From NCBI GenBank assembly GCA_020428585.1, contig JAGQMP010000005.1, positions 6,152-70,151 of the forward strand: 64,000 nt of DNA. The letters run 5' to 3'. A model generated the notes under the pieces. It was not told where the DNA came from. It did no database searches and saw nothing but the letters and a program-made list of their open reading frames with translations. The translations under genes and the position numbers were made by a program. Origin of the DNA: Patescibacteria group bacterium. GTDB lineage: Bacteria; Patescibacteriota; Minisyncoccia; Phycocordibacterales; UBA1006. This document shows positions 10,642-33,274 of the stretch, one piece after another; within the stretch, counting starts at the first letter, position 1; every line of letters begins with the position of its first letter.

Positions 10642-13600
10642 TATGAAGCCACCCTATTCTTCGAAGACCAACTAGCCATAGTTTGTCTAATTTTAGAACG
10701 ATCAGACTCGCTGTAAATATGGCTCAAGAAGAATCGTTCGAGGAGATCCTTAGCAACGACATCTGGATCAGCAGTGGCCTTATCCTCAACTGAGATTTTA
10801 CCTAGAGCATATGCACAACGCTGAAACTCGCGCGCAGTAATAGGTTGCTTGACAGGAAGAGCATTTCGAGACTCGCGTGAATCTTCAAAATTCTTCATAA
10901 AGTCTACACGTAATAAATTACCAAACTGAACGAGTGCCTTAATAGTCTGGAGATCAAATTCTTGGACGCTATTCAACTCTGGCGCATCGTTATCGATGCC
11001 ATTTATGTACCTATCCCAAACTTTAACAAACTCATTGTGTTCAAGATTAGGATCAAGGGTAAGATCCTCAAGGGATCCAGTATTACGAGCAATTCGCATA
11101 GCTTCCGCAGAGTTAAATTTAGGATTTTTGTTGGTATCCTCAGGATCAGGCTTAATCTCTAGATCAGGGTATCCAACCTCCATTGAAACCATGCGACTCT
11201 TCGTAGCATATTGAGGATCAAAGGTGCCTGGATAGTTAGGGTTCATCGAACTGGCAAGGAGAACAGAGGGATCAGCCTCAATAACCTTGCCAGAACTTGT
11301 TTTGAGAGTTAATGCGCGTTTTTCATCCCACAATGCATGGAGAAAAATTTGAGACTGTTCGGGCATGCCGTTCACCTCATTGAAATAAACAATAGATCCG
11401 GGAGTCTGTATGCCACGCAACACCGCCGAAGGAACCTTAATGGTTTGGGTTGCTCCATCCTTTGATTCCAACATAACGTCTTCGGACAATTCAAATTCGG
11501 TTGTCCATTTGGTACAATCAGTCGAGAAGTAAGGGCGATTCGTTCTGTTGCTAAACATCTTCAACAGTACATCCTTACCGGTTCCCGTATGTCCGTTGAG
11601 GTTGAGGATCCCTTCTCCGAGTTCAAGTTGCATCTTAAATAACTCGGCCATCTTTTGTAGATTATTTTGAGTTTCTGAATCAACCACCCAGTTAGATCGC
11701 CACCTCGGAACAAATCCCTTGCCATTTTCATCAATCACCTCCTGACTTGCGATTTTATCCATGTGCCTAAAGAGGGCTACATTATTTTCGCCAAGGAAGG
11801 TTTTGTATTCTTCATACTTCTCGGTATAGCGCGTCTTCCACTCTTGGTCTGATTTATTTCGCGCTTCGTCAGGCTTCGCCCGTTCAGAGTAAATCCGAGC
11901 TAAATCAGTTCGTAGTTGTTCATACTGTTGTTTCAGTTTTCCTTCCTCACTTGCCCAGTCGCGGTACTTGTTTCTCAGATCTTTAAATTCATTGGCAGAC
12001 ATGTACGTTGGTTGGGTATCAACACCACGAACGGTTTTCAATCCCAAACGCCACTCATCCTCGTCTTCCCTGTCTGCGAACACGCGTGATTTTGTCTTTG
12101 AACCATCAGGATTGGTGACCAACATCATCACATCACCATACATCTCCCCAGGTTTTACCCCGACGCCAGCAGTGTTCTTATTGGCCTCAAAAGTCATCTC
12201 AACACGTCGTTCAGATTGCTCCTTAACTTTTGCTTCATACCGTGGAAACGATTCATTACCAAACATAACCATCTGCTGACCAGTCTCGGCAACCGTTGTA
12301 TGGGTACCTGCTTCAACGTCATAGAGAATTTGTGCAACCCCCACCTTTAACTCCCTACGTAACTCTCGAGCCTTATCGGGATTATCAGTCCCTAGCTTTT
12401 CAATCTCGGCTTCCAAAAGCTTCTTGCTCTCGCTTGAAGAAATATATTGTTCTGCTGAACCCTTATCACCAAATTCTTTTTCGTTGAGACGGTTCTTGAA
12501 GGCTTGTATATCCTCATAGAGGTTGTCTGCTAGTTGATCGACACGAATCGATGCAGATTCGCGAACTTTTGCGTATTCCTTCTTGAACTTATCCCGATAC
12601 GTTTTGGCAAGGAGTTCAAGGCTGTTACGCGCATCGTTGATTTTTTGGTACGCATCGTTCGCCTCAACAGGAACATCACGAAGCATGTCTTGGAAACGCG
12701 TTTTGTATTTAGGCAACTGAAACTCGTCCCAGGTGTTAAAGTCACGCATCGTCTCGATAGCGGACAGCTCATTTTTAATCCCGCCGAGGAGGTTGTCGAT
12801 CTCCTCCATCACCTGCTTCCCTTCCTTCTGGAACAACTGGTTGGCCCGTCGATCCAGTTCATGCAGAACATCATTGTAGAGGGTTCGGGCCTCTTGATCC
12901 ATGACGTTCTCGAGCGATTGTAATGTACGTAATTGTTCCCGCGAATGTGAGATGAGTTTCATCGAAAGGTCTCCTTCAAGGTCTTTCCTTACAAGATCAA
13001 CAATACGAACGACTTCGTCTTTGGCAAATTCGCGCTCCTTGGCAAGGAAGTCGTTTTCAACATCATTGAGGATGAAATTGATTTGTGTTTCCTTCAATCC
13101 TTCTTTTCGCAATCTTGATTTGATGAGTTCTAAATTTGTTCGAAAGATGCTCGCGCTAGAAGCATCGACGACCGAACTAAGGTATTTTCGGGTAATGCCT
13201 TCGTACTGATCCTTGAGTTCCTTGAAATGCTTGTTATCGGTATCATTATACGCCTCCTGCCGTGTCTTAGAATTTTTAAAGATTTCTTCAATATCAACCC
13301 CTTCTGAAATCTTCTTTGCTCGATTGGCAGCAATGCGTTCTTGTAAGGAGTCCATCTCAAGAGCATACTTGACCAGGTAACCTTCTTCATTTACTGCGGT
13401 GATGTTCCCCTTGGAATCAAAGTTTACAGCTGAAACCCCCTTCTTTCGTGAGATTTCCTCCAAGGTATCCTTAGTCAGCAAGACCAACTCATCTCCGGAA
13501 TAGAATAAGAAAAAGGTTCCCGTCGGATCTAATTGGAAATTTCTAATATTTTCATATTTCTTCGGTAACTTAGCCTTTGTCTTCTCGGGAGATTGGATGC

Positions 13601-14893: not shown

Positions 14894-16267
14894 ATGGCAG
14901 AGAAAAAGACCACCAACATCCGCATTCCTCCGCAAAACATCGACGCCGAACGCGCACTCCTTGGATCGATTATGCTGCGGCCAATTGCCCTGGCCGAGGT
15001 AATCGACGAGATCTCGGAAGACGATTTCTACGTCCAAAAACACCGCGTCATCTTCCGCGTCATGGCTGACCTTGCCCGCGTGGGTGATCCGATCGACATC
15101 GTATCGGTATCAGAAAAATTAAAGGCGCTGAACCTCACCGACCAAGCAGGGGGCGTATCGTACCTGAACGAGGTCGCCGGAACGGTGCCTTCATCAACAA
15201 ACCTTGATTACTATGCGAAAACGGTGGCGAGCAAGTCGAGCCTCAGGAAATTGATCGAGGCTGGTGAGGTCGTAACAGAACTTGGCTTTAACGAGGGCGA
15301 GGACATCGATGCGGTCCTCGACCAGGCTGAAAAACGGGTGTTCGAGGTGACGTCGAATACCAAAGGCAGCCGCACCTTTACCAGCATGAAGGACCTGATT
15401 CCAAAATCTTGGGAGAAAATCGAACGCCTCGCCGAAGGCGACGATACCTTGCGCGGGGTGCCGACGGGGTACGCAGCCCTCGACCGCATTTTATCGGGAT
15501 TCCAAGAATCAGATTTGATTATTTTGGCCGCGCGTCCATCGACGGGTAAGACGTCCCTCGCCCTCGACATCGCCCGAAAGGCGGCGGTTAATCATAACGT
15601 ACCGATCGGATTCTTCTCGCTCGAAATGTCTGCTGATCAATTAGCCGATCGTATGCTGTCCGCCGAGGCACAGGTCGACGCCTGGCGCATCAGAACCGGA
15701 AAGGGCCTCACCGACGACGACTACGCGCGCATCTCGGTCGCGATGGAGACCTTGTCAAAGGCGCCAATCTACATCGATGACAAACCAGGTAACACCATCA
15801 ACCAAATGCGATCAACCGCGCGTCGCCTCAAGGCTGAACACGGCCTTGGCCTCATTATGGTGGACTACCTTCAATTGATGACCACGAATAAGAATTACGA
15901 TTCGATGGTGAATCAGGTGACCGAAATCTCACGGTCATTAAAGGCCTTGGCCCGTGAGATCGAGGTGCCGGTCGTCGCGCTCTCGCAGCTCTCGCGTGCG
16001 GTAGAACAGCGTGGTGGCAAGCCTCGGCTCTCTGACCTTCGTGATTCGGGATCCATCGAACAAGATGCTGACGTCGTTATCTTCCTGCACAAGGAACGGA
16101 ACGAAGACGGCGTCGGTCGCAGCCAGGTGACGGATGTTCTGGTTGAAAAGCATCGAAACGGTGCCGTGGGATTCTGTCAGCTCTTCTTTGACGAGGCGCG
16201 TACGACCTTCCTCGAACTTGATAAACAGCATCAGGATATGGAGGGCGGTCTTGATGATGAATTTTAA
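14894..16267 (+). CDS. dnaB: Replicative DNA helicase DnaB
   Basis: N-terminal IPPQNIDAERALLGSIML. Walker A ARPSTGKTSLALD. RecA-like H2/H4 motifs LIMVDYLQLM and SQLSRAVEQR. Upstream TTGTCC-N16-TACAAT promoter-like element. Start chosen at the internal MAEKK. Confidence 0.9.
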   Translation: MAEKKTTNIRIPPQNIDAERALLGSIMLRPIALAEVIDEISEDDFYVQKHRVIFRVMADLARVGDPIDIVSVSEKLKALNLTDQAGGVSYLNEVAGTVPSSTNLDYYAKTVASKSSLRKLIEAGEVVTELGFNEGEDIDAVLDQAEKRVFEVTSNTKGSRTFTSMKDLIPKSWEKIERLAEGDDTLRGVPTGYAALDRILSGFQESDLIILAARPSTGKTSLALDIARKAAVNHNVPIGFFSLEMSADQLADRMLSAEAQVDAWRIRTGKGLTDDDYARISVAMETLSKAPIYIDDKPGNTINQMRSTARRLKAEHGLGLIMVDYLQLMTTNKNYDSMVNQVTEISRSLKALAREIEVPVVALSQLSRAVEQRGGKPRLSDLRDSGSIEQDADVVIFLHKERNEDGVGRSQVTDVLVEKHRNGAVGFCQLFFDEARTTFLELDKQHQDMEGGLDDEF

Positions 16268-16273
16268 TTTCTT

Positions 16274-16360
16274 TTCAGACGAAAAGAAACAAAAGTCTTT
16301 GAGCTCACAACAGACTTCTAAAAACTACAAAGAATTTCTGATATTTCAAAACTCGCTTCG
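16274..16360 (+). repeat. Copy A of a ~85-nt repeated 3-prime element (hairpin cttttcagacgaaaag followed by ...gagctcacaacag...ttctaaaaac...atttctgatatttcaaaactc). Copy B is at 43193-43290 on the minus strand.
   Basis: Hand alignment of 16278-16357 against the reverse complement of 43193-43290 gives ~85% identity over >90 nt. Confidence 0.6.
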
Positions 16361-16458
16361 CTCAGACAGTTGAAATATTTCCAGAAATTCTTTTTTGTTT
16401 TAAACGAAGTCTTTATGTAGGCTCGTATACCAAGAACCGATTCATATTTGACATATTA

Positions 16459-16487
16459 AAATATCTATATATAATTACAGGAAATTA
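16459..16487 (+). promoter_or_regulatory. Consensus sigma-70 promoter TTGACA-N16-TATAAT upstream of the MaoC-like gene
   Basis: tttgacatattaaaatatctataTATAATtac. Confidence 0.5.
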
Positions 16488-16511
16488 AATTTAAAATTAA
16501 ATCTACCTAAT

Positions 16512-17015
16512 ATGAAAATATACAAAAACATCTTTGATGAAAATCTCCATGAATATCTCAGAAAGCTCAATTTCAAAACTGATACTCAGAAAATAGATCA
16601 GAATATGGTTGAAAAGCATATAACTCTGAGCTTGGACAACAACCCTGTACACATGAACCTAGCACTCGCTAAGAAGTCACATTTCAAAAGACCTGTTGTA
16701 CATGGTCCGTTAATAAGCTCGCTATCGACGGGATGGATTCATCATATATTTACTTGTACGGAATATACTTATCCTGTTCAACTTCAGCAGAATATAAAGA
16801 ATCTTACCTCACTGACTATTGGGGATAGTATCTGCTATATTTTTGAATGCTCAGAAGTTGTTCTAAGAAATGAAGAGGGGCGTGATCCGTATCTAAAGGT
16901 TGTCTATGAAATTAGTTGTTTTGATTCCAATAATAATGAAATTATGAAAATCGAATGGTACATAAGGTACTATAGTAGTGACTACCTATTACAAAACAAC
17001 GAAATTGATTCATAA
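16512..17015 (+). CDS. MaoC-like / hotdog-fold dehydratase family protein, in a low-GC island
   Basis: DNNPVHMNLALAKKSHFKRPVVHGPLISSL resembles the MaoC dehydratase motif (D.NPIH....A....F...I.HG). Very AT-rich codon usage relative to its neighbours. Confidence 0.55.
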   Translation: MKIYKNIFDENLHEYLRKLNFKTDTQKIDQNMVEKHITLSLDNNPVHMNLALAKKSHFKRPVVHGPLISSLSTGWIHHIFTCTEYTYPVQLQQNIKNLTSLTIGDSICYIFECSEVVLRNEEGRDPYLKVVYEISCFDSNNNEIMKIEWYIRYYSSDYLLQNNEIDS

Positions 17016-17065
17016 TCACATCACCACCTTGAGAAATCAAGGTGTTTTTTTGTTATAATAGCCAA

Positions 17066-19258: not shown

Positions 19259-19273
19259 GATCTAAGAAGGAAC

Positions 19274-19885
19274 TTATTTTGGTTTTTGAATTGAGGTGAT
19301 TTCCATTGATTTAAGGATTTTTAGGAATTCTTTGTATTGCCTCTTGAGTGATTTGTTTTCATCAAGTGAGAAAGAGATGATGAATCGGTCATAATAATTT
19401 ACCCGCGATTGATCTTCACTAAGAAGTGGCATGTACGAGGTTAAGGTTCCCGGGGCTACCTCTTGGTATACCGTACCGAAAGCTTCGATCTCTTTTTTTA
19501 CATATAAGCTTTGTCCTAGCCATTCACCTACCTTTTGGTATTCGTCAGTCAAAGGAACAACTAGTTCATCTGGCTGAGGCGGCCACAAGCCCGCACCTGA
19601 GTCACCGGCTTGGTAAGGTGTGTCGTCGCCTTCTTTTTCGAAACGATAGTCAAAATCAACAAAAATATCTTCTTTTTCAGAGTCTCTAAATAAAGCAATC
19701 CCACCCAAATAACCTAAAGCAAATTCACCATCTGCAGTATCAGCAAAGTACTGGTCAGGATATTCAATCACTAGCCTGTGTTTTGTTTCTGATATATTTT
19801 GTTCAGCTGTTAATCTCTTACCATTGGTAAATAAAATTATACCGATAAGAATTAAAAGAGTTGGTAGAATTATTTTCTTTAACAT
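19274..19885 (-). CDS. Hypothetical exported protein (N-terminal signal/TM)
   Basis: MLKKIILPTLLILIGIILF hydrophobic N-terminus. No recognisable domain. Confidence 0.5.
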   Translation of the reverse strand: MLKKIILPTLLILIGIILFTNGKRLTAEQNISETKHRLVIEYPDQYFADTADGEFALGYLGGIALFRDSEKEDIFVDFDYRFEKEGDDTPYQAGDSGAGLWPPQPDELVVPLTDEYQKVGEWLGQSLYVKKEIEAFGTVYQEVAPGTLTSYMPLLSEDQSRVNYYDRFIISFSLDENKSLKRQYKEFLKILKSMEITSIQKPK

Positions 19886-19903
19886 AAGAATATTTTATCG
19901 CAT

Positions 19904-22900
19904 TTACTTATAAACCTCCATTGAGGTATTTCCAAATTCAACACAAGAATATCTAGATTCATCATGATCGCTAGACGATCTACATATATATTCTACACTT
20001 GATTTTCCTTGACCCTGGGATACGACGAGATAAGCCGTTTTTGCCCCATCAGCCGAGAAGGTCTGTCTGGATGTCTCTCCATCAATGGTAATATTTTTTG
20101 ACCTGTTTCGATTCCTTTTTGGATCATTTACCAAAAGGATGAATTCAGTATTTACCAAAACATCTTGTTGACCTCCTTCAACATTCACACGTATCTGTTT
20201 TTTATCTGGAATATCAGCATACCCAACCGCAACCATGATATGCCCTGGTTCACCAAACATAACCGGTCGATTTCTATCAATTGATGATTTAATCGTGGTG
20301 AATTTTTTAGCTGATCCTGGATCAAGGTGACGATACGACAAATCAATACTATCTTTCCCAAAATAATCCTCGTAGCCGCTGGTATAACCCAAAGCACAAC
20401 CTTCAAGCGAAGTCGTAGCAAAAGCTCCGTCGACTTCAAACCCTTGATAAGTACATGAATCGTCGAGGTTCTGCCCCTTGTCATTCCAAATAAATTCACG
20501 AAGGCCTTCATCGACTACTTCTCCATTAAAGGTGACGTTCTGGGACAGGTAACTCGGCAAGACGTCGTAATAACTAGCAATCATCACTGCGGAAGCCCCC
20601 GTACACATTGAGGTCCCGCCTTTCAGCGGTGAAGCAACCGATCCTGCAGTACCTAGGGGAACTGGTTCGCCATCTTTGTAGTACATTTGCTGTGGCAGAT
20701 ATGGTACATCGAGAATTTTTGCAGTAAGAATTTCTTCGGGAAGAGGTATGGAAACCTCTTCACCATTTTCATCTTTGACGGTTTTATCATCGCTAGGAAG
20801 TTTGATATTATATTCATCTACTAGTTGTTGAAGCTTGACGCTATCAACCACTTCGATAATGGTATTCCCGTATTCATCTGTGCTTACTTGAATAGCGTTT
20901 TGGCGCACCGATTCATCGATGAAGTCTTGCTGATCACGACGGAAAAGGTTTTTAAACCAATTCCACCCATCTTCGAACCAACCAACCACATCCTGGATAA
21001 AGGTTGTATCACCTTCAGATTCTTCAGTAGGTTCATCAGCTACAGGTTCTTCTTCTCCGACTTCCTCCTTCCCTTCAATCTCACCACAATTACTATCAAC
21101 GAAAGATGAAGTTCCAGGACCGAAGATACCATCGCTGGTGAGGTTGTTATCGGATTGGAATTCAGTTAGGGCTGCCTTGGTACCGTTCCCGAATATCCCA
21201 TCAATCGGTGGGCCGAGGTAGCCGAGGTCCCTCAAGAATATCTGCAATTTCACCACCGCCTCGCGATCGGAACTTCCCTTTCTGATACTTGGCTCTTCTG
21301 ATTGAATGTCGAGACAACTGTTTTCAAGGAGGTAAATGGGTTCTTCTTCGATTTCTTCTGGTGATTCTGGATCAGCTATTGGATCATTTTCAGTGTCGTC
21401 ATCAAGTTCGTCTTCATTATTATCAGTGTGTGACGATCCGCCGCCGGTGACTTCTTCTTCAATGGTGAAACTGCTTGAACCTGATAGATGCCCAGCTATG
21501 GCCGACAAAGTGTAAGTATCTGGTTCAAGATCAAAAACCAAAGAAAACTCGGCTGAACCGTCAATCATCTCTGCCTCGGTCGGACTGATATCTCGATCAT
21601 CAATAGCCAAGGTCAGTGTTCCTGTGTAATCAAAGTCATCAGCAAGGATACTTACCACGAGGTTCGTCGTCCCAAAAGGCAAACTGGTGTCGTGCTCTAG
21701 GCTAAAGTAATCGTCGTCAGATTCAGGATCGGTGACCTGAAAGGTATTCCCTTCACCTATTCGGTAATCATCTGAAACAACGATGTGGTAGGTTCCTGGC
21801 GAAACATCCAGTTCATCGATCGAAAAAGTTCCGTTGCCAGAGCTAAGAGAAAGACTGCCAAGGCTCGTTGAGGAATCATCAACAAGACTCAGATCCACCT
21901 CACCCGCATAATCAGGATTATAAGCGGCAACGCTAAATGATAATGGTTCAAGGCGAACAAGGTCATCAATATCAGAGACTTCGAAATAATTTTGTTCTTT
22001 TAATATATCAGGAATTGAAAGCCCGACATTGATTGATCGCGCCTCTTCACCATCAATATTCCAAAACCGCGTCATGCCAGAGGCGATGGTGTCTGATACA
22101 TCACTACTGGTCCCAGGATCAGCGCTAACCGACGTTCCCGTGACTGAACTTGTCACTACTTCACCAAGTGAAGATTCATCGTCCGCCATACGAAAGGAAT
22201 AGATCGCCAAAGGGTCACCCTCCCAAGCGAGACGCGTCGTGGTAGGTGACCATGTACCTTGGTTATCAACCGATCCATACAAGAACGGAGTTAGGTAGCG
22301 ACTAATTGATCCCTGATTTAATAAATCGCCAGTGAATGTAATATCTTCAGCGCTCGCAAGACTGCGCTCGCTTAATGAAGCGTCTTCTTTAATCCAGGTA
22401 AACAAAACATCGTTGGTATAACTGCGCATTTTGTGATTACCAGTTATAACAAGGTAGCGAGCGGTGATATTTCCAACCTGTAAGGTTTCTGTTGGATCAT
22501 TGACTCCAAACCAAACAATCCCGTTCGTGTCGAGGTCTCCTGAAAGGATATTCAACGATAGAACATTATCAGTGTCCGCAAAGGTAAGGGGAAAATCGTC
22601 CGTGATGAGAGTGTCGATCGAAGCACTATCAGATAAGGTAATCGGGGTCGCCAAGGTTACCGAAGTATCAAAAAATCCTGAAAGGGTGCGAACAACTTCC
22701 CCATTTAAGGTCAGATCCGACAACCATGTACCTTCATTACTAACCCCGCCATGAGCTATCACATCAATATATTGAAGAATCGTTCCTTGATTTATGAGAT
22801 CACCATACGTGTGAATCGTATAATTAGTACCAGAAGATTTCGGCCATAGAGAAGCACTTGGATGAATCATGATAGCATCATCTGCGCTAAGAGTATCATC

Positions 22901-23638
22901 GCGAAGGGTATGCGTGCCGTAGAAATTGATAGCCGTCGCACTAACATTACCGACTTGAGTCGTAGCGTCGCTACTATCATCCCCAAAATTGACGGTCGCG
23001 TTTGTACTAACATCGCCTGAAACTGTGGTGAGGTTGAGTGTCGCCTCAGACCCCTCGAAGGTAATCGCATAATGATTCGTAGTAAGAGAGGGCCAAAAGA
23101 TAATCGGACTCCCCGCAAGAGTGATCGGGGTTTCCAGGAAAACATTGATAGGAATAGTTCCATTAATAATTCGCGTTGATTCACCATTCAAACGCAGTTG
23201 ATTATTATTCCAGATTCCTAGTCCACCAATTGACCCAAGGGCAGTTGGTAAGACGTATTGGCCAACCGTTCCATCATTCAATAATCCACCCGTCACATCG
23301 AGGTCATAGGTAGTAAAACCGCTTCCATTTATTGTTGAGCCATTCGTTATATAAATCCCAGCAACCGTCGTATCAGATCGAAGTCTTACGAGTCCATTGA
23401 TTTCTACAACATCAGAGGATTCGGGAATTCTGCCTTCTTCCCAGGTAGTTACCTGGTCAAAAAATCCACCCTCAGCGACCGCGTGAAGGGTCGGTGATAC
23501 CGAAAAACCAGGGTCTTCTTGGGCAAAAGAGCTTTGCGTCAAAACATATAGACTTAAAATAGCTATAAAGAATAGATAATATAATTGTTGTCTGTATAGA
23601 TGGACAAACATAACCAAAATCATCATATCATTGCCCAT
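19904..23638 (-). CDS. Giant secreted surface protein (1244 aa): signal peptide, tandem ~150-aa N/T/G-rich repeats, acidic linker, peptidoglycan-binding-like domain, C-terminal C39-like cysteine peptidase domain
   Basis: Repeats GDLINQGTILQYIDVIAHGGVSNEGTW and GDLLNQGSISRYLTPFLYGSVDNQGTW. PG_binding_1-like LQIFLRDLGYLGPPIDGIFGNGTKAALTEFQ. C39_2-like SMCTGASAVMIASYYD ... GHIMVAVGY. Confidence 0.65.
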   Translation of the reverse strand: MGNDMMILVMFVHLYRQQLYYLFFIAILSLYVLTQSSFAQEDPGFSVSPTLHAVAEGGFFDQVTTWEEGRIPESSDVVEINGLVRLRSDTTVAGIYITNGSTINGSGFTTYDLDVTGGLLNDGTVGQYVLPTALGSIGGLGIWNNNQLRLNGESTRIINGTIPINVFLETPITLAGSPIIFWPSLTTNHYAITFEGSEATLNLTTVSGDVSTNATVNFGDDSSDATTQVGNVSATAINFYGTHTLRDDTLSADDAIMIHPSASLWPKSSGTNYTIHTYGDLINQGTILQYIDVIAHGGVSNEGTWLSDLTLNGEVVRTLSGFFDTSVTLATPITLSDSASIDTLITDDFPLTFADTDNVLSLNILSGDLDTNGIVWFGVNDPTETLQVGNITARYLVITGNHKMRSYTNDVLFTWIKEDASLSERSLASAEDITFTGDLLNQGSISRYLTPFLYGSVDNQGTWSPTTTRLAWEGDPLAIYSFRMADDESSLGEVVTSSVTGTSVSADPGTSSDVSDTIASGMTRFWNIDGEEARSINVGLSIPDILKEQNYFEVSDIDDLVRLEPLSFSVAAYNPDYAGEVDLSLVDDSSTSLGSLSLSSGNGTFSIDELDVSPGTYHIVVSDDYRIGEGNTFQVTDPESDDDYFSLEHDTSLPFGTTNLVVSILADDFDYTGTLTLAIDDRDISPTEAEMIDGSAEFSLVFDLEPDTYTLSAIAGHLSGSSSFTIEEEVTGGGSSHTDNNEDELDDDTENDPIADPESPEEIEEEPIYLLENSCLDIQSEEPSIRKGSSDREAVVKLQIFLRDLGYLGPPIDGIFGNGTKAALTEFQSDNNLTSDGIFGPGTSSFVDSNCGEIEGKEEVGEEEPVADEPTEESEGDTTFIQDVVGWFEDGWNWFKNLFRRDQQDFIDESVRQNAIQVSTDEYGNTIIEVVDSVKLQQLVDEYNIKLPSDDKTVKDENGEEVSIPLPEEILTAKILDVPYLPQQMYYKDGEPVPLGTAGSVASPLKGGTSMCTGASAVMIASYYDVLPSYLSQNVTFNGEVVDEGLREFIWNDKGQNLDDSCTYQGFEVDGAFATTSLEGCALGYTSGYEDYFGKDSIDLSYRHLDPGSAKKFTTIKSSIDRNRPVMFGEPGHIMVAVGYADIPDKKQIRVNVEGGQQDVLVNTEFILLVNDPKRNRNRSKNITIDGETSRQTFSADGAKTAYLVVSQGQGKSSVEYICRSSSDHDESRYSCVEFGNTSMEVYK

Positions 23639-23664
23639 TAATAATAGACAAGAAAAAAGCCCGA

Positions 23665-24054
23665 TTATACGGACTTTTTTTGTTGCGATTGTGCGAGCAT
23701 ATCAGATCTAACCGATCCAAGATTAGGAGCATCTGGGTCAATCTTTCGTTTAAACTGATGAAGGTCTATGGGGGGTAAGTTAATATTGAGGCGTCCATTT
23801 AAGTCATCCACGATCATATTGATCCAAGATTCAATGGTATTTAGATTTTCATTAAAACCTTGGTCTATGAGGGATTGCTCTTCTTTTGAATATTTTCTTT
23901 TTGATGGAATATCTCTGAGAGTTGTCTCGAAACTCGATAATACCAATTGAAATGAAGAAAATAATATCCTGCCGATTTTATCTCCTGGTGCCTGTAATAA
24001 ACATTCACGGTGATAACGGTCTATGTAGTAAGCTACCTCGTTTCTTTCGCTCAT
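23665..24054 (-). CDS. Hypothetical protein
   Basis: 129-aa ORF in the same orientation as its neighbours. No motif recognised. Confidence 0.4.
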   Translation of the reverse strand: MSERNEVAYYIDRYHRECLLQAPGDKIGRILFSSFQLVLSSFETTLRDIPSKRKYSKEEQSLIDQGFNENLNTIESWINMIVDDLNGRLNINLPPIDLHQFKRKIDPDAPNLGSVRSDMLAQSQQKKSV

Positions 24055-24148
24055 ATTCTTTTGTTTTAAAAGTTAAAAGTTCATCAACCACCATACTTCT
24101 ATCGGGAAGAGTCGTCAAATAAAAAAACACCTTGTCCGAGGTGATTTC

Positions 24149-24715
24149 TTAATTCACAATCACATGAATCGCGTCGATGATGTTCGTCGGGATCGCGTTG
24201 TGTTGGAACAGGGTCGCGCAGAGTCCTTCGGGTTCTTCATCAACATCGACAAAGAGAAAGGCGCTCTTGCCGACAAAGTCGACGCTGGTGACGGTAAGGT
24301 TGTCTTCGTCATAGTCTGGAAAATCAACATCGTCATCTTCCCCGTCAACTTCTTGGTCGACACATCCATCAAGACCAATCTCGGCGATGTTCTTGAGGTA
24401 ATAAAAGCCAAGAGTGAATGGTGCCGTTACCGCATTGATCGCCTGAGCAGCGTAAGAGGTAGTGGCAGTTCCACCTCGCGAAGAAGCACCTGACGACGAA
24501 CCTGCTTGTGCGTTTGAGGTTGCGTTCGAGAACGATTCAACGTACGGGTAATCGAGGGTGACTTCTTCACCGTTGATAATCTCGGTACGTGGGCTTGGTG
24601 CATCCGCGTCATTGCGGCGTTGCCCTTGGTTGATAAGGTAGATCCCAATGATAACAAGAATAATGGCAGCAATAATGGTTCCGATATGTTTCTTCATATG
24701 CTTTGAATATACCAT
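24149..24715 (-). CDS. Hypothetical membrane-anchored protein with acidic C-terminal region
   Basis: TM IGTIIAAIILVIIGIYLI. S/G/T-rich linker. The start may be the internal MKKHIG. Confidence 0.45.
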   Translation of the reverse strand: MVYSKHMKKHIGTIIAAIILVIIGIYLINQGQRRNDADAPSPRTEIINGEEVTLDYPYVESFSNATSNAQAGSSSGASSRGGTATTSYAAQAINAVTAPFTLGFYYLKNIAEIGLDGCVDQEVDGEDDDVDFPDYDEDNLTVTSVDFVGKSAFLFVDVDEEPEGLCATLFQHNAIPTNIIDAIHVIVN

Positions 24716-24752
24716 TTTAAGTTCAAATTACAAGTTCTCTTCTATCATCCCA

Positions 24753-24784
24753 TCATTCTTAAATTCGTACGAATTTAAGAATGA
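24753..24784. repeat. Perfect 32-bp palindrome TCATTCTTAAATTCGTACGAATTTAAGAATGA
   Basis: Checked by hand as exactly self-complementary. Confidence 0.8.
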
Positions 24785-24802
24785 TTTCCTTGTCTCACCA
24801 AA

Positions 24803-24844
24803 ATGATCTGTTCTACTATTCGATCGAATAGTAGAACAGATCAT
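24803..24844. repeat. Perfect 42-bp palindrome ATGATCTGTTCTACTATTCGATCGAATAGTAGAACAGATCAT
   Basis: Checked by hand as exactly self-complementary. Confidence 0.8.
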
Positions 24845-24849
24845 CGCAA

Positions 24850-24876
24850 TAAAAAACCCTTTGTGATGAGGGTTTT
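24850..24876 (-). terminator. Intrinsic terminator downstream of leuS (aaaccct-ttgtgatga-gggtttt)
   Basis: Hairpin with flanking A/T runs immediately after the leuS stop. Confidence 0.55.
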
Positions 24877-27800
24877 AAACTATAACTAAACTGATTGCCT
24901 TGCCAGGGATATAGATAAATTTCTTTACTTCCTTCCCTTCGGTCCATTTCACCACTTCAGGTAGTGCCATCACCCGGTCGCGAAGGGTGTCCTCGTCTTC
25001 ATCATCTGAGACAATAATTTCGGCACGGACCTTACCGTTAATTTGTATGCCGATAGTCGTACTCTCATTCATAATCAATGACGTATCGGCAACGGGCCAA
25101 TCAGCGAGGTGGACCGAGGTATCGTACCCACCCGCTGTCTGCCACCATTCTTCGACGAGGTGAGGTGCAAACGGTGCGATCAATCGAGCCAAAATTTCAT
25201 AACTATTTTTACTTATCCCGCCAGCTTTCTCAGCGTCATTCACAAAGATCATCAAGGTCGAGATCGCCGTGTTTAATTTAAGGCGATCAATATCATCCGT
25301 GACCTTGAGGATAGTTTTATGCAAGGCAGAGGTTACCTGGTCTGATTCGGTATCAACGATATGTTCAGATAAGCGCCAGAATCGTTCAAGGAACCTACGA
25401 ATACCAACGACTCCGTTCGGATCCCAAGGATAACTACCTGGTTCATTAAAGGGACCGATAAAGGCCAGGTACATGCGTACCGTATCTGCGCCGACATGAC
25501 TGACAACTTCGTCAGGATCAATGACGTTGCCTTTTGATTTTGACATCTTGTTCCCATCAGGGCCGAGAATCAATCCGCGATTGAGGCGTCCTTGATAGGG
25601 TTCATCATGGGACACCAAACCTAATCGATAAAGCGCCTTCACCCAGAATCGACTGTATAAGAGGTGCATCGTCGTGTGTTCTGCCCCGCCAAAGTACATC
25701 GACACCGGCATCCAAGCATCTATCGCTTCTTTCGACGCAAAAACATCTTCGTTTTGGTTATCAAGGTAACGATAAAAATACCATGATGAATCAACAAAGG
25801 TATCCATGGTGTCCACCTCGGGTGTCCAACCTTTACCAAAGATTTCTTCGGTTCTCTTCTTCAATTCCTCTGATCGGGCAAGAGGTGCAGTACCGTCAGG
25901 AGTGTGGTCGACATCCTCGGGAAGTAACCACGGCAGATGTTCATCGGGCACCAGGTGTGGGGTGCCTTCAGGATCATAGACAACCGGAATCGGGCATCCC
26001 CAGTAACGCTGCCGTGAAATACCCCAATCGCGAATACGATAGGTGGTGGTTAATGCTCCACTAACTACATCGGTAATATTTCGACGTGCGTCTTCTGAAG
26101 TTTGGGTGTTGAAATCTGGCGAGTTAATGAGTTTACCTTCAAAAGTACACGAGAACCGCTTACCTTTCGGAAGGTATCCGTCAGCACATTCACCCAAGAG
26201 GTCGTACATCGCATTCCATTCAGCATTGATTTGAGATTGCCCTTTTTCTTCGGTTGCACCTGCTGAGAGGATAAACGCGTTTTCGCCTGTGGTAATCAGC
26301 TGCCTTGAATTCCCCACTGGTCCTGCCGACGGTAGTACTACAAAACGAAACGGTAAATCGTATTTCAAGGCAAACTCGCAATCACGTTCGTCATGCGCTG
26401 GCACGGCCATAACCGCACCAGTTCCCACATTCGGAAGAACGTAATCGCCAATCCATATTGGAATTGGCTGTCCGGTTGCTGGGTTTACTGCTTCGACCCC
26501 TTTTAACTCGACGCCATTTTTTTCCTTTGATTGTTGTCGGTCGAGATCTGATTTTTTAGACACCTCGGTGAGGTACGCATCAAGCTCATCACTATTGGCG
26601 ATGCGATTTTTTAATGAAGTTACAAGAGTGTGTTCAGGTGCCAGGACGAGGTAGGTTGCGCCAAACAAGGTATCAGCACGGGTCGTGAATACCTGTACTT
26701 GATCGAGAGTATCTTCACCCGAAACCACTCGCCATGGATAACGCATATCTTCACGTTTCAAAAAATCATTCACCTCGGCACGTGGTACCCATACGAATTC
26801 TGCGATGGCTTGTTCCTCGGCTGAGGATTCTTCCCTCTCCAGATCCTTTAGTTTTACGTGAACGATACGATAGTTCGCTTTGCGGTTTTGTTCTTTGACG
26901 ACATGCCAAAACAACCCGTGCGATGAACGGTCGTAGGCCTGTACGATTTCTGGGTTCTGATATCCGGTTTCCTCGCGTACTTCTTCCAAGGCGGTTTCTT
27001 CTGGAGTCTTGCCTTCATCAATGCCGCCAGTGACAAATCCCTGCCAATCCACCTGTTTCCATTTGGCACACAAAAATTCATCCTTGTCAGGGTGTTCAAT
27101 AATCACAACGACGTTGTCACGTTCGACGATTGGTTGACCTTCACGAAAGGCGTCATCCCCTGGACCTGTGTTTACATCGTAAGTTTCAGTTTCACGAATC
27201 GTAAAAGGAATCAGGCTACCCTCTTTTCGTCCGACCCATTCACGCTGGGCCTGTTTAATCGAATCATCCCACGGAAGTTTTTCAAGATCATCCACCAAAG
27301 CGTCGGCAAAATCGGTGATCTTCATCATCCATTGCGGCATGTCTTTTTGAATCACCTGGTTACCACAACGTTCGCAAGCACCTGCAACCACCTGTTCGTT
27401 GGCGAGAATCGTTTTATCGTGTTCACACCAGTTCACCTTAGTCACATCACGGTAGACGAGGCCGTTCTCGAAAAACCGGGCAAACATCCACTGGGTCCAC
27501 CGGTAGTACGATGGGTCACAGGTCGCCAAGGTTCGAGACCAATCAAAACTCGCCCCCATCGATGTGAGCTGTTTTTTCATATAATCCATGTTTTCGTAGG
27601 TCCACTTGTTAGGATCGAGGTCGCGTTTGATCGCCGCGTTTTCAGCTGGTAAGCCAAAGGCGTCAAATCCCATCGGATACAAAACATTGTAACCCTGCAT
27701 TCGTTTGAATCGAGCGTAGATATCAGGCACGGCAAAGGCGTACCAATGGCCCACATGGAGGTTTCCCGATGGATAGGCAAATTCAGACAGGGCGTAGAAG

Positions 27801-27907
27801 TTTTCCTTGCCTGCTACCTGGTTTTCCGTGCGGTAGGTCTGGTTCTCCCGCCACCAATCCTGCCATTTTTTCTCAATTTTCTGAGCGTCAAATCCCTTGT
27901 TATTCAT
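24875..27907 (-). CDS. leuS: Leucyl-tRNA synthetase carrying a ~165-aa inserted Nudix-like domain between the catalytic core and the CP1 editing domain
   Basis: HIGH-type HVGHWY. KMSKS. Editing-domain entry VFTTRADTLFGATYLVLAPEH. Insert (aa ~236-400) contains the Nudix-box-like GGIDEGKTPEETALEEVREETGY. Confidence 0.9.
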   Translation of the reverse strand: MNNKGFDAQKIEKKWQDWWRENQTYRTENQVAGKENFYALSEFAYPSGNLHVGHWYAFAVPDIYARFKRMQGYNVLYPMGFDAFGLPAENAAIKRDLDPNKWTYENMDYMKKQLTSMGASFDWSRTLATCDPSYYRWTQWMFARFFENGLVYRDVTKVNWCEHDKTILANEQVVAGACERCGNQVIQKDMPQWMMKITDFADALVDDLEKLPWDDSIKQAQREWVGRKEGSLIPFTIRETETYDVNTGPGDDAFREGQPIVERDNVVVIIEHPDKDEFLCAKWKQVDWQGFVTGGIDEGKTPEETALEEVREETGYQNPEIVQAYDRSSHGLFWHVVKEQNRKANYRIVHVKLKDLEREESSAEEQAIAEFVWVPRAEVNDFLKREDMRYPWRVVSGEDTLDQVQVFTTRADTLFGATYLVLAPEHTLVTSLKNRIANSDELDAYLTEVSKKSDLDRQQSKEKNGVELKGVEAVNPATGQPIPIWIGDYVLPNVGTGAVMAVPAHDERDCEFALKYDLPFRFVVLPSAGPVGNSRQLITTGENAFILSAGATEEKGQSQINAEWNAMYDLLGECADGYLPKGKRFSCTFEGKLINSPDFNTQTSEDARRNITDVVSGALTTTYRIRDWGISRQRYWGCPIPVVYDPEGTPHLVPDEHLPWLLPEDVDHTPDGTAPLARSEELKKRTEEIFGKGWTPEVDTMDTFVDSSWYFYRYLDNQNEDVFASKEAIDAWMPVSMYFGGAEHTTMHLLYSRFWVKALYRLGLVSHDEPYQGRLNRGLILGPDGNKMSKSKGNVIDPDEVVSHVGADTVRMYLAFIGPFNEPGSYPWDPNGVVGIRRFLERFWRLSEHIVDTESDQVTSALHKTILKVTDDIDRLKLNTAISTLMIFVNDAEKAGGISKNSYEILARLIAPFAPHLVEEWWQTAGGYDTSVHLADWPVADTSLIMNESTTIGIQINGKVRAEIIVSDDEDEDTLRDRVMALPEVVKWTEGKEVKKFIYIPGKAISLVIV

Positions 27908-27938
27908 AGCTTCTATACTACCTGAAGGGGTGGTTTTT

Positions 27939-28433
27939 TCAAAAAGATAGTTCAGCGATTTGTCTCTCTAAATCTTGAAGTTTCCCTCTATTGTGAATAA
28001 CAATCTTCGGCTCGATAATAGGCTCAAAACTGTCCTTAACCTTTAAGTATTGGTTGAAATCAGTTTTATTAATATCTTCCTTCCTCTCTAATATTCTTTG
28101 TTTAATTTGCTCATCACTAGGTCCCAAAACTTCAATAACAAAATATTTTTTCGACATACTCTTGGCTATGTCTAAAGCTCGATTTATATTTTTGCTAGAA
28201 GAGAATGTTGCATCTAAAATAACATTTTTGTTTTTTAAACTATTTTTTACTTCATTAAAAAATAAATCATAAACATGATCTATCTCCTCCTCTGAATAAG
28301 AAGGATTGGGGTACCACTTATTTCTAATTTCATTAGTTTGAAGAATAATCCCTCCAATTTTGTTATGAATAAGACGAGCAACGGTTGATTTTCCAACTGC
28401 AATATTTCCACAAACAAGAATTAACATATTCAA
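27939..28433 (-). CDS. P-loop NTPase / small-molecule kinase-like protein (AAA_33-like), in a low-GC island
   Basis: Walker A LVCGNIAVGKSTVARL. Length ~164 aa, typical of nucleotide/metabolite kinases. Confidence 0.5.
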   Translation of the reverse strand: MNMLILVCGNIAVGKSTVARLIHNKIGGIILQTNEIRNKWYPNPSYSEEEIDHVYDLFFNEVKNSLKNKNVILDATFSSSKNINRALDIAKSMSKKYFVIEVLGPSDEQIKQRILERKEDINKTDFNQYLKVKDSFEPIIEPKIVIHNRGKLQDLERQIAELSF

Positions 28434-28466
28434 ACTATACCAAAATATAAAAGAAAAATAGAATAA

Positions 28467-28495
28467 AAAACAAGAATCATTTCTTGTTTTTCGCT
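28467..28495 (-). terminator. Hairpin aaaacaagaa-tcat-ttcttgtttt overlapping the pyrG stop codon
   Basis: Perfect 10-bp stem. Confidence 0.5.
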
Positions 28496-30171
28496 GCCTT
28501 AATCAACCCCGTAAACAAAGGATGCGGGTCGAGGGGCCGTGCTTGCAGCTCCGGATGAAATTGAACGCCGACAAAGAACGGGTGGAGTTTCTGATCAAGC
28601 TCGACGATTTCGGTTAATACCCCATCAGGCGAGGTGCCTGATACATGGAAACCCTTCTCCTCGAACATCTTTTGGTATTCATTCCCGATTGTATTTAATT
28701 CATATCGGTGGCGGTGGCGTTCGCTGATTGCTGCCTTCTTGTATACCTTGCGGGCGAGGCTGCCGGGTTTCAAATTTGCGGTGTAAGATCCCAGACGCAT
28801 CGATCCGCCGTAGTCACCTTGTTTCAATTTTTCTTTCTGTTCCGACAGGATATCGATAACGGGATGATCGGTATCAGGATTCACCTCGGTCGTGTGGGCG
28901 CCTTTCAGTTTTAATACATTTCGCGCAAATTCCACCGATGCCATCTGCATACCAAGGCAAATACCAAGGAACGGAATCTTGTTCATCCTGACATATTCGA
29001 TAACCGCAAGTTTACCGTCGATGCCGGACGATCCAAACCCGCCCGGTACAATAACGCCGCCGTAATTATGTAATCGTTTTAAGTTCTTCTTTTTTTCGGT
29101 ACCTTCAAAATCTTGCGCCTGCAGCCAATCAATCTTAACACTGACACCTAGCTCGGCGCCCGAGAATTTCAACGCCTCGATCACCGATACATAAGCATCC
29201 GACAAGACAAAATCACCCGTGCCGAAATATTTACCGACGATGGCGATGCTGACCTCGCCTTGTGATTTCTTGGTTTTGTTCACAAAACGATTCCAGGCCT
29301 GGCGGTTTTTTATTCCTTTTTGGTTGCTGCGCGATTTTAGGGATAATTTACGAAGAAGTTTTTGATCAAGGTTTTCTGATACAAAATGTTCAGGAAGGTC
29401 GTAAATGCTACTAAGGTTGGGCGCTGAAATAATATCCTCATCATGCAGCATCGATGAAGTCGCAATTTTGCCGCGACGGCGATCATCCATAATACCAGGA
29501 CTGCGACCGACAATAATGTCTGGGAAGATTCCAGATTCCTGTAGAGTTCTAACGGCCTGCTGGGTTGGTTTAGTCTTCATTTCCCCTAGGGTGCCAGGTA
29601 CTGGCAGGTACGACACGAGGACAAAGGCAACATCCTGTGGCGACTGGCGTTTCATCATGCGGGCCGCCTCGAGGAAGAGGATATTTTCATACTCGCCCAC
29701 GGTACCGCCAATTTCGACGACGGTGATCTCGGCGTCTTCCTTGTCGGCTGACCGTTGTATCTGGTCGATCACGGCCAAGGGAACGTGTGGCACAACCGAT
29801 ACTGTTTTACCTCCGTAACCAAGCGAACGTTCACGGTTAATGACAGTTTGATAAATCGATCCTGTTGTCATATACGAATCACGGGTTAAGGATCGATTTA
29901 AAAATCGTTCGTAGTTTCCCATATCCTGATCAGTTTCATAGCCGTCTTCCAATACAAAGGTCTCACCGTGTTCGGTTGGGTTCATAGTACCAGCGTCGAC
30001 GTTCACATAAGGGTCGATCTTTACCGCCGATACCTCATAACCAGCGAATTGCAGAATCTTACCAATCGATGATGCGGTGATACCCTTCCCCACGCCACTC
30101 ATCACGCCACCTACGACAAAGATGTATTTTCTCGTCTTCTTTTTTTGTGTTTTCTTTTTCATAGGTCTCAT
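28477..30171 (-). CDS. pyrG: CTP synthase
   Basis: N-terminal synthetase domain YIFVVGGVMSGVGKGITASSIGKIL. C-terminal glutamine amidotransferase GICLGMQ ... HPE. Confidence 0.95.
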   Translation of the reverse strand: MRPMKKKTQKKKTRKYIFVVGGVMSGVGKGITASSIGKILQFAGYEVSAVKIDPYVNVDAGTMNPTEHGETFVLEDGYETDQDMGNYERFLNRSLTRDSYMTTGSIYQTVINRERSLGYGGKTVSVVPHVPLAVIDQIQRSADKEDAEITVVEIGGTVGEYENILFLEAARMMKRQSPQDVAFVLVSYLPVPGTLGEMKTKPTQQAVRTLQESGIFPDIIVGRSPGIMDDRRRGKIATSSMLHDEDIISAPNLSSIYDLPEHFVSENLDQKLLRKLSLKSRSNQKGIKNRQAWNRFVNKTKKSQGEVSIAIVGKYFGTGDFVLSDAYVSVIEALKFSGAELGVSVKIDWLQAQDFEGTEKKKNLKRLHNYGGVIVPGGFGSSGIDGKLAVIEYVRMNKIPFLGICLGMQMASVEFARNVLKLKGAHTTEVNPDTDHPVIDILSEQKEKLKQGDYGGSMRLGSYTANLKPGSLARKVYKKAAISERHRHRYELNTIGNEYQKMFEEKGFHVSGTSPDGVLTEIVELDQKLHPFFVGVQFHPELQARPLDPHPLFTGLIKAAKNKK

Positions 30172-30214
30172 GTTCCTGGATCCCCGCCTGCGCGAGGATG
30201 ACCAAAGTGTTCCA

Positions 30215-30262
30215 AAAGAAAACCGAGGTCGTGAAAAACCTCGGTTTAATCGTTAACTGATC
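30215..30262 (-). promoter_or_regulatory. Leader terminator-like hairpin (aaaccgagg-N11-cctcggttt + U-run) between a TATAAT box (~30283-30288) and the pyrG start. Candidate attenuator.
   Basis: Minus strand reads gTTATAATgattttt...aaaccgaggtttttcacgacctcggttttcttttgg...ATG. Confidence 0.4.
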
Positions 30263-30327
30263 GTATTGTCAGTTGTTCTCTCATAAAAATCATTATAACA
30301 AAAAATAAAAAGCACACCAAATGGGTG

Positions 30328-31092
30328 CTATTTCTGTAAATGATCCTTAATTCCCTTCACCGCTTCGAGAACTTCAATTGGCAGCATCCAGATCGTCGTG
30401 TTTGATTGGTCTGACGAGAGGTCATTCACCGCCTGGAGGGTTCGCAAATGCATTGCCCCTGGGGTCGAATTCAAGGTTCGGGCGGCCTCGGCGAGGTTTG
30501 ATGCCGCCTCGCGATCACCCTGGGCCTTGATGATAACGGCACGTTTTTCACGTTCGGCTTCAGCTTCTTTTGAGATCGTCCTCTTGAGATCATCCGGAAT
30601 AATGACATCTTTGAGTTCAAGAAGTTCAACATCAATACCCCAAGGATCGGTTTTCAGGTCGAGGTCGACCTTGATCATCTCGGCAATCTCGTTTCGTTTC
30701 TGAAGGAGCTCGTCAAGCGTTCGTTCACCCACCGCGTTACGCATCGTCGTTTGGGCTAATTGGGACACTGCGTAGCGGAAATCTTCAACTTCGATGATTG
30801 ATTTCGGAGCGTCTTTGATTTTGTAGTACACGACCGCGTTAATCTGGACGGGAATGTTATCGCGGGTGATGACTTCCTGGTTCGGAACATCAACGGTCTT
30901 GGTCCTGATGTCGACCTTGTACAGTTTTTGAACAATCGGGATAATCGGTCGCCAGCCTGGCATCCTGGTTCCAGTAAACCGTCCGAGAGTAAAGACCACG
31001 CCACGCTGATACTGGTTAATCTGCTTGATAATCGAGAAAAACAGGATGATACCTGCGATGATGATGTACCACATATACGCATATAGTAGCAC
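30328..31092 (-). CDS. SPFH/band-7 (stomatin/prohibitin-like) membrane protein
   Basis: N-terminal TM. RGVVFTLGRF...VDIRTKTVDVPNQEVITRDNIPVQINAVVYYKI, typical of the SPFH domain. Confidence 0.8.
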   Translation of the reverse strand: MLLYAYMWYIIIAGIILFFSIIKQINQYQRGVVFTLGRFTGTRMPGWRPIIPIVQKLYKVDIRTKTVDVPNQEVITRDNIPVQINAVVYYKIKDAPKSIIEVEDFRYAVSQLAQTTMRNAVGERTLDELLQKRNEIAEMIKVDLDLKTDPWGIDVELLELKDVIIPDDLKRTISKEAEAEREKRAVIIKAQGDREAASNLAEAARTLNSTPGAMHLRTLQAVNDLSSDQSNTTIWMLPIEVLEAVKGIKDHLQK

Positions 31093-31128
31093 GTTTTTCT
31101 TTACCCTGCCTGGTGTATACTTGGTAGC

Positions 31129-32586: not shown

Positions 32587-32603
32587 AACACCCTTGTGGT
32601 GTT

Positions 32604-33239: not shown

Positions 33240-33274
33240 GATCTTAGTATAACAAAAACCAGCCAAAGCTGATT

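Follow-up and report, generated by a model that had tools for sequence, protein, structure and literature searches.

An AT-rich palindromic repeat directly behind stop codons in Patescibacteria: a putatively mobile, terminator-like element

Why do dnaB and dnaK carry similar non-coding DNA immediately behind their stop codons in a 64,000-nt stretch of a Patescibacteria group bacterium genome (GenBank assembly GCA_020428585.1, contig JAGQMP010000005.1, positions 6,152 to 70,151)? [quoted passage not shown] We put at about 0.55 the probability that both are members of a hitherto undescribed repeat family of Paceibacteria-type Patescibacteria (Candidate Phyla Radiation, CPR): interspersed palindromes that are small (~165 nt), rich in AT and non-coding, non-autonomous and mobile or horizontally exchanged, with a terminator-like 3′-end hairpin. 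The kind of object would most likely be an ordinary one, a small palindromic repeat like MITEs, SPRITE or ERIC, and not a new kind of gene.

Four copies of the repeat and their empty sites

Copy A, of 161 nt, occupies positions 16268-16428 on the plus strand and starts at the base right after the TAA (16265-16267) of the replicative helicase gene dnaB (14894-16267, plus strand, 457 amino acids; Pfam DnaB/DnaB_C), with a gap of 0 nt. Copy B, of 167 nt, occupies 43121-43287 on the minus strand and starts 7 nt past the TAA (43295-43297) of dnaK (43295-45202, minus strand, 635 amino acids; Pfam HSP70). In blastn the two copies were 82.6-83.2% identical over 155-161 nt (E ~1e-38), so the homology and its orientation relative to the upstream genes hold, and Pfam agrees with the gene names. 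The length does not: the unit measures about 161-167 nt, and the span first noted, 16274-16360, is only its 5′ half. The stretch at 16367-16390, first taken for a degenerate, inverted third copy, belongs to the 124-nt palindrome of the element itself, as its 3′ arm; it pairs with 16330-16350, and copy B has the same arm. A 22-mer (AATTTCTGATATTTCAAAACTC) and a 25-mer (GAGCTCACAACAGNNTTCTAAAAAC), both invariant between the copies, each occurred exactly twice in the window and never in 100 shuffles. A covariance model of the copies, run with filters off, scored copy A at 181.7 bits and copy B at 179.1 bits and found no third copy in the 64 kb. Six independent assemblies of the same species, made from different samples, carry copy A with 100% identity, and copy B was identical in two independent assemblies (L001 and L147).

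The repeat also occurs in another genome. A permissive scan of a genome collection with the 18-mer TTTCTGATATTTCAAAAC returned, for the most part, chance matches in Prochlorococcus and Pelagibacter, but two further true copies, at loci L105 and L109, were among the matches listed. Both belong to the metagenome-assembled genome (MAG) CALBVO01. The L105 copy lies 7 nt past the TAA of a crtI-like phytoene desaturase gene and the L109 copy 6 nt past the TAA of an open reading frame (ORF) of 124 amino acids, each in sense orientation. All four copies lie 0-7 nt past a TAA in the sense direction, are 161-170 nt long and have stop codons in all six frames. Their GC content is 29-32% (32% in copy A), compared with 44.7% for the window and about 37% for its non-coding DNA.

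Copy A is closer to the two CALBVO01 copies (89.5% identity with L109 and 89.0% with L105, which share 90.4% with each other) than to copy B in its own genome; copy B is 82-83% identical to all the others. The contigs of CALBVO01, a Paceibacteria-like MAG, have 34-36% GC (~35%) against 44.7% in the window. The DnaB of the window is 100% identical to P0001, annotated as 'replicative DNA helicase [Patescibacteria group bacterium]', and its next relatives are from Paceibacteria-type MAGs at no more than 84%. A 185-kb contig whose CrtI is 90% identical to that of L105 also encodes a DnaB that is just 75% identical to the DnaB of the window; the two hosts are therefore clearly different lineages.

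At the orthologous 3′ ends of dnaB, dnaK and crtI the element was absent in every relative examined. In relatives with 79-84% DnaB identity a canonical terminator directly follows dnaB, for example TAAAAAACAAGCTTGTGCTTGTTTTTT in L162/L163 and TAAAACCTTATTTATAGATAAGGTTTTTTT in L164, and recR begins 34-41 nt past dnaB in L164 and L169. In the window, copy A is followed by a sigma-70 consensus promoter (16448-16475, plus strand; TTGACA-16-TATAAT, a perfect 12/12), which lies outside the repeat and faces a MaoC-like dehydratase gene (16512-17015, plus strand; Pfam PF01575), a gene that relatives do not have between dnaB and recR. The terminator scan then placed a canonical intrinsic terminator upstream of recR (17025-17054, plus strand), and a shared sequence, ...GGT(G)TTTTTTTGTTA(T/C)AATA..., runs into recR in the window, L164 and L169. 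Because this terminator is orthologous to the dnaB-adjacent terminator of relatives, the stop codon of dnaB is separated from the ancestral terminator by the element, the promoter and the MaoC-like gene. Behind dnaK, the window has about 1.5 kb, including a YbaK-like gene, that is not found in relatives, and in L164 and L169 dnaK lies next to dnaJ. For crtI, the next carotenoid gene begins within 2 nt in L183 (90% identity) and L185 (89%), while in L184 (87%) a canonical terminator follows; at L105 the element stands in place of the terminator present in L184, and the ordinary terminator is gone. At L109 the element lies alone between the stop codon and a canonical terminator that directly follows.

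The empty orthologous sites imply that the element arrived by insertion, or at the least is polymorphic in presence and absence, at each of the three testable loci. The earlier note would have read a lack of further copies and of conservation in relatives as a chance duplication. Further copies do exist in another genome, whereas the orthologous sites in close relatives are empty, and this argues for insertion and against a conserved UTR. Unrelated loci, empty orthologous sites, and copies more alike across genomes than within one genome together resemble the behaviour of a non-autonomous mobile or horizontally exchanged element.

Other searches added no copies. A metagenome scan with a 20-mer matched only the dnaK locus of the window itself, in a collection that is incomplete for this organism (JGI contigs with copy A exist). 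No extra copy was found in the ends of the source contig or in about 300 kb from relatives, the latter searched with the covariance model.

Folding, covariation and transcription signals

Each copy has three parts: a hairpin of A and U only in its stem, 0-7 nt past the TAA; an A-rich linker; and an imperfect palindrome of 124-127 nt. In copy A the hairpin, TTTCTTTT-CAGACG-AAAAGAAA (16268-16289, plus strand), appears in both the minimum free energy and the centroid fold and is homologous in 4/4 copies. In copy B it is TTTCTTTTTT-CAAACG-AAAAAAGAAA in the predicted fold (43262-43287, minus strand). The A/T hairpin seen earlier right after the stop codon is thus present in both copies. Sequence and alignment define the linker of copy A, CAAAAGTCTTT (16290-16300, plus strand), which on the opposite strand forms a U-rich tract after the long hairpin. 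The palindrome of copy A (GAGCTCACAACAGACTTC...GAAGTCTTTATGTAGGCTC) spans 124 nt (16301-16424) and folds equally well on both strands; that of copy B, given by the fold and the pair table, spans 127 nt (43122-43248) and has a degraded U-tract. In general form the arms read GAGCTCACAACAG...CTTTATGTAGGCTC, and the ends of the element read TTTCTTTT...GAGCTCACA / TGTAGGCTCG. The inverted ends (GAGCTCACA.../...TGTAGGCTC) are supplied by the palindrome, and a conserved 5′ module of 33-40 nt, made of the A/U hairpin and the linker, lies outside them, so that the two true termini do not form an inverted repeat.

The region 16268-16435 folds at -47.8 kcal/mol on the plus strand (z = -6.0 against dinucleotide shuffles) and at -52.6 kcal/mol on the minus strand (z = -5.3); copy B folds at -39.9 to -50.2 kcal/mol (z = -5.5). 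Since the opposite strand folds at least as well, folding energy is silent on which strand matters. Within the palindrome of copy A, a terminator-like core (16316-16405) consists of an A-tract (CTAAAAACTACAAAG), an AU-rich stem of about 21 bp, a loop of about 20 nt and a U-tract (TTTTTTGTTTT, 16391-16401; CTTTTTTGTTTT in general form), with predicted energies of -22.6 kcal/mol in sense and -24.3 kcal/mol in antisense. In copies A, L105 and L109, UUUUUUGUUUU comes directly after the stem of about 21 bp (-22 to -29 kcal/mol, few G-C pairs); in B this tract is degraded. The order of A-tract, stem and U-tract is seen on both strands. As modelled, this layout resembles that of a bidirectional intrinsic terminator with an extra outer stem around it.

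Across the four copies, 96.2% of the cells in 53 predicted pairs were standard pairs. Both sides had changed in 9 of the 53, compared with 4.7 +/- 1.5 in shuffles, of which 2/500 reached the observed number, and 0-2 in slid controls. The look for covariation across the copies, a check proposed beforehand, did reveal compensatory changes. In the first hairpin, some double changes hinge on the alignment of homopolymer runs; those in the long stem at columns 41/170, 53/157, 55/155, 71/138 and 74/135 are independent of it. In copy B the U-tract has been lost (TTTTTCCGTGGTTTT) and the pairing has been kept through compensatory changes. The numbers of G-U cells (8) and A-C cells (5) gave no discrimination between strands. 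Two loop motifs, AAAACTC and TCARACAG, are invariant in the four-copy alignment. Selection on a hairpin, of RNA or of DNA, could account for the upkeep of the stem, as could hairpin-templated correction.

Upstream of copies A and B the promoter scan predicted no promoter-like site, and it found no strong promoter inside the element; near copy A, the single strong promoter site is the downstream one directed at the next gene. Close behind dnaB or dnaK, the scan predicted no further terminator on the strand of the gene. From these absences, and from the loss of the ordinary terminator at L105, we infer that the core serves as the hairpin of a transcript 3′ end.

The proposed course of events would be the following. 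Copies would settle in the short space that tolerates insertions, behind a stop codon and ahead of the terminator, and would then be co-transcribed as the 3′ end of the upstream mRNA. As RNA, they would form the small A/U hairpin followed by an interrupted stem of about 60 bp, whose inner part is the A-tract, AU-rich stem and U-tract. This hairpin may act as a bidirectional, intrinsic-terminator-like 3′ end that ends or stabilises the dnaB and dnaK transcripts, and the same hairpin may block antisense read-in.

Several observations weigh against this interpretation. The pairing of copy B outlived its U-tract, which suggests that the stem is maintained and not termination as such. The simple terminator scan does not call the core, with its loop longer than 8 nt and its few G-C pairs, and an AU-rich stem with a 20-nt loop is atypical of intrinsic terminators. 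On the side of mobility, compensatory changes are not expected of protein-bound terminal inverted repeats, and the extra 5′ module beyond the inverted repeat is not classic MITE anatomy. There is no consistent target-site duplication in the flanks of the four copies, and there is no transposase or partner insertion sequence among the annotated genes of the window and the fetched loci. Only 4 distinct copies were recovered (at least 4, from the listed matches and the window). Their proximity to stop codons and their common orientation in 4/4 cases are weak statistics, as the permissive gap is only tens of nt once the downstream promoter or terminator is respected.

Known families and other explanations

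No interspersed palindromic repeat family of Patescibacteria was found described in the literature. At gathering thresholds, the Rfam check foreseen in the earlier note returned a single tRNA in the window and nothing for the element; in a permissive scan (E <= 10) of 16200-16520 the best matches were eukaryotic miRNA and snoRNA models at 13-23 bits, far under their gathering thresholds. Distant-mode blastn against phage and plasmid collections gave only two matches of about 45-49 nt (E = 3e-3), which we treated as chance, and two patterns searched in viral contigs gave only chance 18-mer matches. In one plasmid record, NC_014633.1 (Ilyobacter polytropus), the stretch 672829-672877 weakly matches the element's apical hairpin (49 nt, 84%, E = 3e-3), and this match occurs in four places in the record; it is probably due to chance between AT-rich palindromes.

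The candidate of a small RNA gene family found no support: promoter-like sites upstream are missing from the predictions, the element starts 0-7 nt past the stop codon, and Rfam has no match. 6S RNA and other single small RNA genes were rejected on the same grounds, as the element abuts the stop codon. The candidate of a MITE/REP-like repeat agrees with the findings, and so does that of a 3′-UTR terminator or stability module, as the core looks like an intrinsic terminator; the one does not exclude the other. Size (MITEs measure about 50-500 bp) and the absence of coding capacity fit MITEs, as do dispersed copies and insertion polymorphism: two genomes hold four copies, each at a locus unrelated to the others, and this AT-rich, non-coding palindrome is absent from orthologous sites. 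TA can be read on both sides of the L109 copy and perhaps of copy A, but not of copy B or L105, and the pairs of filled and empty sites are too diverged to fix the junctions.

The closest published analogue, as judged by description, is SPRITE of Streptococcus pneumoniae, reported in 2011. SPRITE is AT-rich, has an 18-bp stem and a U-rich tract, and is enriched next to the 3′ ends of coding sequences; it has no clear target-site duplication or identified partner insertion sequence, and its co-option as a terminator has been proposed (PMC3049150). The present repeat shares its size below 200 bp, the lack of coding capacity, a composition AT-richer than that of the host, and the long stem (18 bp in SPRITE, about 21 bp in the core here) with a U-rich tract. 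It also shares the location near the 3′ ends of coding sequences and the lack of a clear duplication or an identified partner. The two differ in host (Firmicutes and Patescibacteria) and were compared by description, not by sequence; here an outer stem extends the hairpin to a palindrome of 124-127 nt, and a separate A/U hairpin is added at the 5′ side. SPRITE has about 30 copies per genome, compared with 2 per ~70 kb here.

ERIC duplicates a TA target. The 127-bp ERIC/IRU elements of Enterobacteriaceae and Vibrionaceae resemble the present repeat in being an imperfect palindrome of about 125 nt in transcribed intergenic DNA, with presence/absence polymorphism between relatives. They differ in sequence and in their unrelated hosts, and no consistent duplication was seen here. 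The repeat had no blastn match (word size 11) in 5,426 complete genomes of E. coli, carriers of ERIC, and sequence similarity to ERIC is thereby excluded. ERIC often lies at the 3′ ends of genes in Yersinia, where its orientation alters the level of the upstream mRNA, and QMITE2 lies in 3′ UTRs of Coxiella (PMC10969869). The Correia/NEMIS elements of Neisseria form RNA hairpins that are cut by RNase III and can affect expression (PMC10969869). Like them, the present repeat is an inverted-repeat element in the range of ~100-200 bp, presumably co-transcribed with its neighbours. Correia elements have outward promoters, IHF (integration host factor) sites, TA duplications and 26-bp terminal repeats and lie mostly upstream of genes, whereas the present element is placed behind stop codons and has no strong promoter inside it.

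REP and BIME of E. coli are likewise extragenic palindromes just past stop codons. REPs stabilise upstream mRNA, and according to Liang, Rudd and Deutscher (2015) those within ~15 nt of the stop codon can reportedly lower translation of the upstream gene. The element here is four times longer than a REP and lacks a conserved tag, and the annotated genes include no RAYT. It further resembles the canonical bidirectional terminators of the host genomes (for example TAAAAAACAAGCTTGTGCTTGTTTTTT of L162, or window positions 36084-36106) in having an A-tract, a stem-loop and a U-tract directly after a stop codon. Those terminators are 25-35 nt long and locus-specific and have a G+C-richer stem, whereas the element exceeds 160 nt and is 83-90% identical between unrelated loci and genomes.

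Could the repeat instead be a resident of the mRNA, a cis-acting 3′-UTR module selected by the host for mRNA stability, for processing by RNase III/E or for an effect coupled to translation termination, whose copies look alike through RNA constraint and have not moved? The position of 4/4 copies in sense 0-7 nt past the stop codon, the compensatory changes that keep the stems, the invariant AAAACTC and TCARACAG loops, the pairing of copy B that outlasted the decay of its U-tract, and the presence of essential housekeeping genes at 2/4 loci would all follow from such a role. A further possibility would be an RNA switch coupled to translation termination, where opening of the A/U hairpin by a terminating ribosome alters the way the long hairpin folds. 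Nevertheless we consider the selected 3′-UTR module unlikely. The relatives in which the module is absent behind dnaB, dnaK and crtI have 75-90% protein identity and carry ordinary terminators or an adjacent gene instead, and the four host genes (helicase, chaperone, carotenoid desaturase and a small membrane ORF) are functionally unlinked. An identity of 89-90% across about 10 GC points is too high for vertical descent, because the intergenic DNA of these genomes is barely alignable. Both strands fold equally well, and the G-U and A-C cells pick no strand.

The equal folding of both strands would suit a remnant of a single-strand DNA transposon, either a palindrome-associated element of the IS200/IS605 type or one like REP/RAYT, whose DNA hairpin is recognised by a Y1 transposase encoded elsewhere. 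Such an origin would also account for covariation that keeps a hairpin and not a fixed terminal sequence, as fits structure-specific recognition, and for the lack of a consistent target-site duplication, since that family makes none. It is quite improbable all the same. No Y1 transposase or RAYT is present among the annotated genes of the window and the fetched loci, and the left junctions (TAA, AAAAC, AAGAT, AGGTA) have no conserved tetra- or pentanucleotide. The two window copies run in opposite directions with no switch of GC skew between them; their orientation thus goes with the gene, not with the strand of replication. Membership in the RAYT-associated REP/BIME families was rejected. REPs are defined as 20-40 bp long, with a GTAG/CGTC tag and a link to RAYT (PMC3733652); about 165 nt is far too long, and copy B has GTAA in place of the GTAG close to the 3′ end.

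At three of the four loci, the element stands between the stop codon of a conserved gene and DNA that relatives lack, namely the promoter and MaoC-like gene behind dnaB, the ~1.5 kb with the YbaK-like gene behind dnaK, and a non-homologous small ORF behind crtI. This arrangement, and the same element in two different genomes, would be expected of a recombination site or landing pad, attC-like or a portable stretch of homology, that bounds cassettes captured behind conserved genes by a system with no recognisable integrase. We hold this for a very doubtful explanation. No second copy or half-site is present at the far end of any insert, no integrase or recombinase is among the genes annotated nearby, and the element of L109 stands alone between the stop codon and the terminator. 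The gap between dnaB and recR holds other, lineage-specific inserts without the element in L162/L163 and also in L186 (described below), which points to a simply permissive spot. An integron attC site (57-141 nt, with RYYYAAC / GTTRRRY cores) was rejected: there are no such cores at the ends, the element is longer at 161-170 nt, its copies are single and not in arrays, and the annotated neighbours include no integrase.

Chance similarity, local duplication or an assembly artefact, which the presence of only two copies in 64 kb and the few matches in public collections might suggest, has next to no probability in view of the E-value of ~1e-38, the identity of copy A in six independent assemblies and of copy B in two, and the two more copies at unrelated loci of another genome.

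Neighbouring loci and biological meaning

Positions 16448-17054, between dnaB and recR, form a self-contained unit of the 12/12 promoter, the MaoC-like gene and the ancestral dnaB terminator, of which relatives have only the terminator. At L186 (JGI Ga0136261_1000028, with a DnaB 75% identical to that of the window), a different element of about 125 nt with 18-nt terminal inverted repeats (AAAAGATCACAAAATAAA...TTTATTTTAAGATCTTTT) lies at 11375-11500, past the stop codon of dnaB and ahead of a strong canonical terminator, that is, in the same niche as the repeat studied here. It had no other copy in 1.5 Mb of sequence. We rejected the hairpin behind dnaB in L186 as a diverged copy of the repeat, as its covariance-model score was 11 bits and blast showed no similarity.

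The dnaB and dnaK genes are about 5-6 kb apart in L164/L169, in the order dnaB-recR-...-L21-cysS-dnaJ-dnaK, compared with 27 kb in the window. About 19 kb of extra genes (~19270-37960) lie in the window between the L21 gene and cysS; they include leuS, pyrG, relA/spoT, parB, a tRNA and a gene for a 1244-amino-acid protein with a peptidoglycan-binding domain. Upstream of cysS there are two perfect 30-nt palindromes (TATTCTAGTATTCGTACGAATACTAGAATA) that are 100% identical (37505-37534 and 37909-37938), are separated by 374 nt and flank a small ORF on the minus strand. Diverged relatives of this palindrome lie upstream of leuS (24754-24783 and 24809-24838), with the core TTCG(T/A)(A/T)CGAA in common. 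From their sequence, the 30-nt palindromes could be operators bound by a small DNA-binding protein that regulates itself, or else the two ends of an inverted-repeat element of about 434 nt.

Downstream of crtI, L105 (5725-6090) and L184 (3755-4095) have in common a leader of about 40 nt, TTGTA(A/G)TATTTTT(G/A)TTTTATGATTTA. The small ORFs after this leader, of 95 amino acids in L105 and 92 in L184, are unrelated (no BLASTP alignment), and two other relatives have no gene there. As far as its sequence goes, the spot after crtI appears to be a small, variable, cassette-like site in the carotenoid cluster of one Patescibacteria lineage. The cluster itself, on a 185-kb contig that also carries Paceibacteria-type dnaB and dnaK, comprises genes for phytoene desaturase, Caroten_synth (PF04240), a UbiA-family prenyltransferase, phytoene/squalene synthase and polyprenyl synthase. 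Carotenoid genes were found on the Paceibacteria-like contigs L183, L184, L185 and L105, and their best outside homologues are from Bacteroidota. A full carotenoid cluster is unexpected in organisms of minimal biosynthesis.

The genomes of Patescibacteria are very small and compact, and a family of interspersed palindromic repeats would be new among them. The gap behind a stop codon is evidently a tolerated niche for insertion in these genomes, although it amounts to a few nt between the stop codon and the terminator. If the repeat is indeed exchanged between genomes, a hairpin about 90% identical between genomes ten GC points apart would mark DNA exchange among uncultured and probably naturally competent epibionts. 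If the repeat is simply selfish DNA, it would be an ordinary addition to the catalogue of ERIC, SPRITE and Correia elements. If it terminates or stabilises transcripts as proposed, the expression of dnaB and dnaK in this lineage would be affected, and the repeat might act as a portable terminator.

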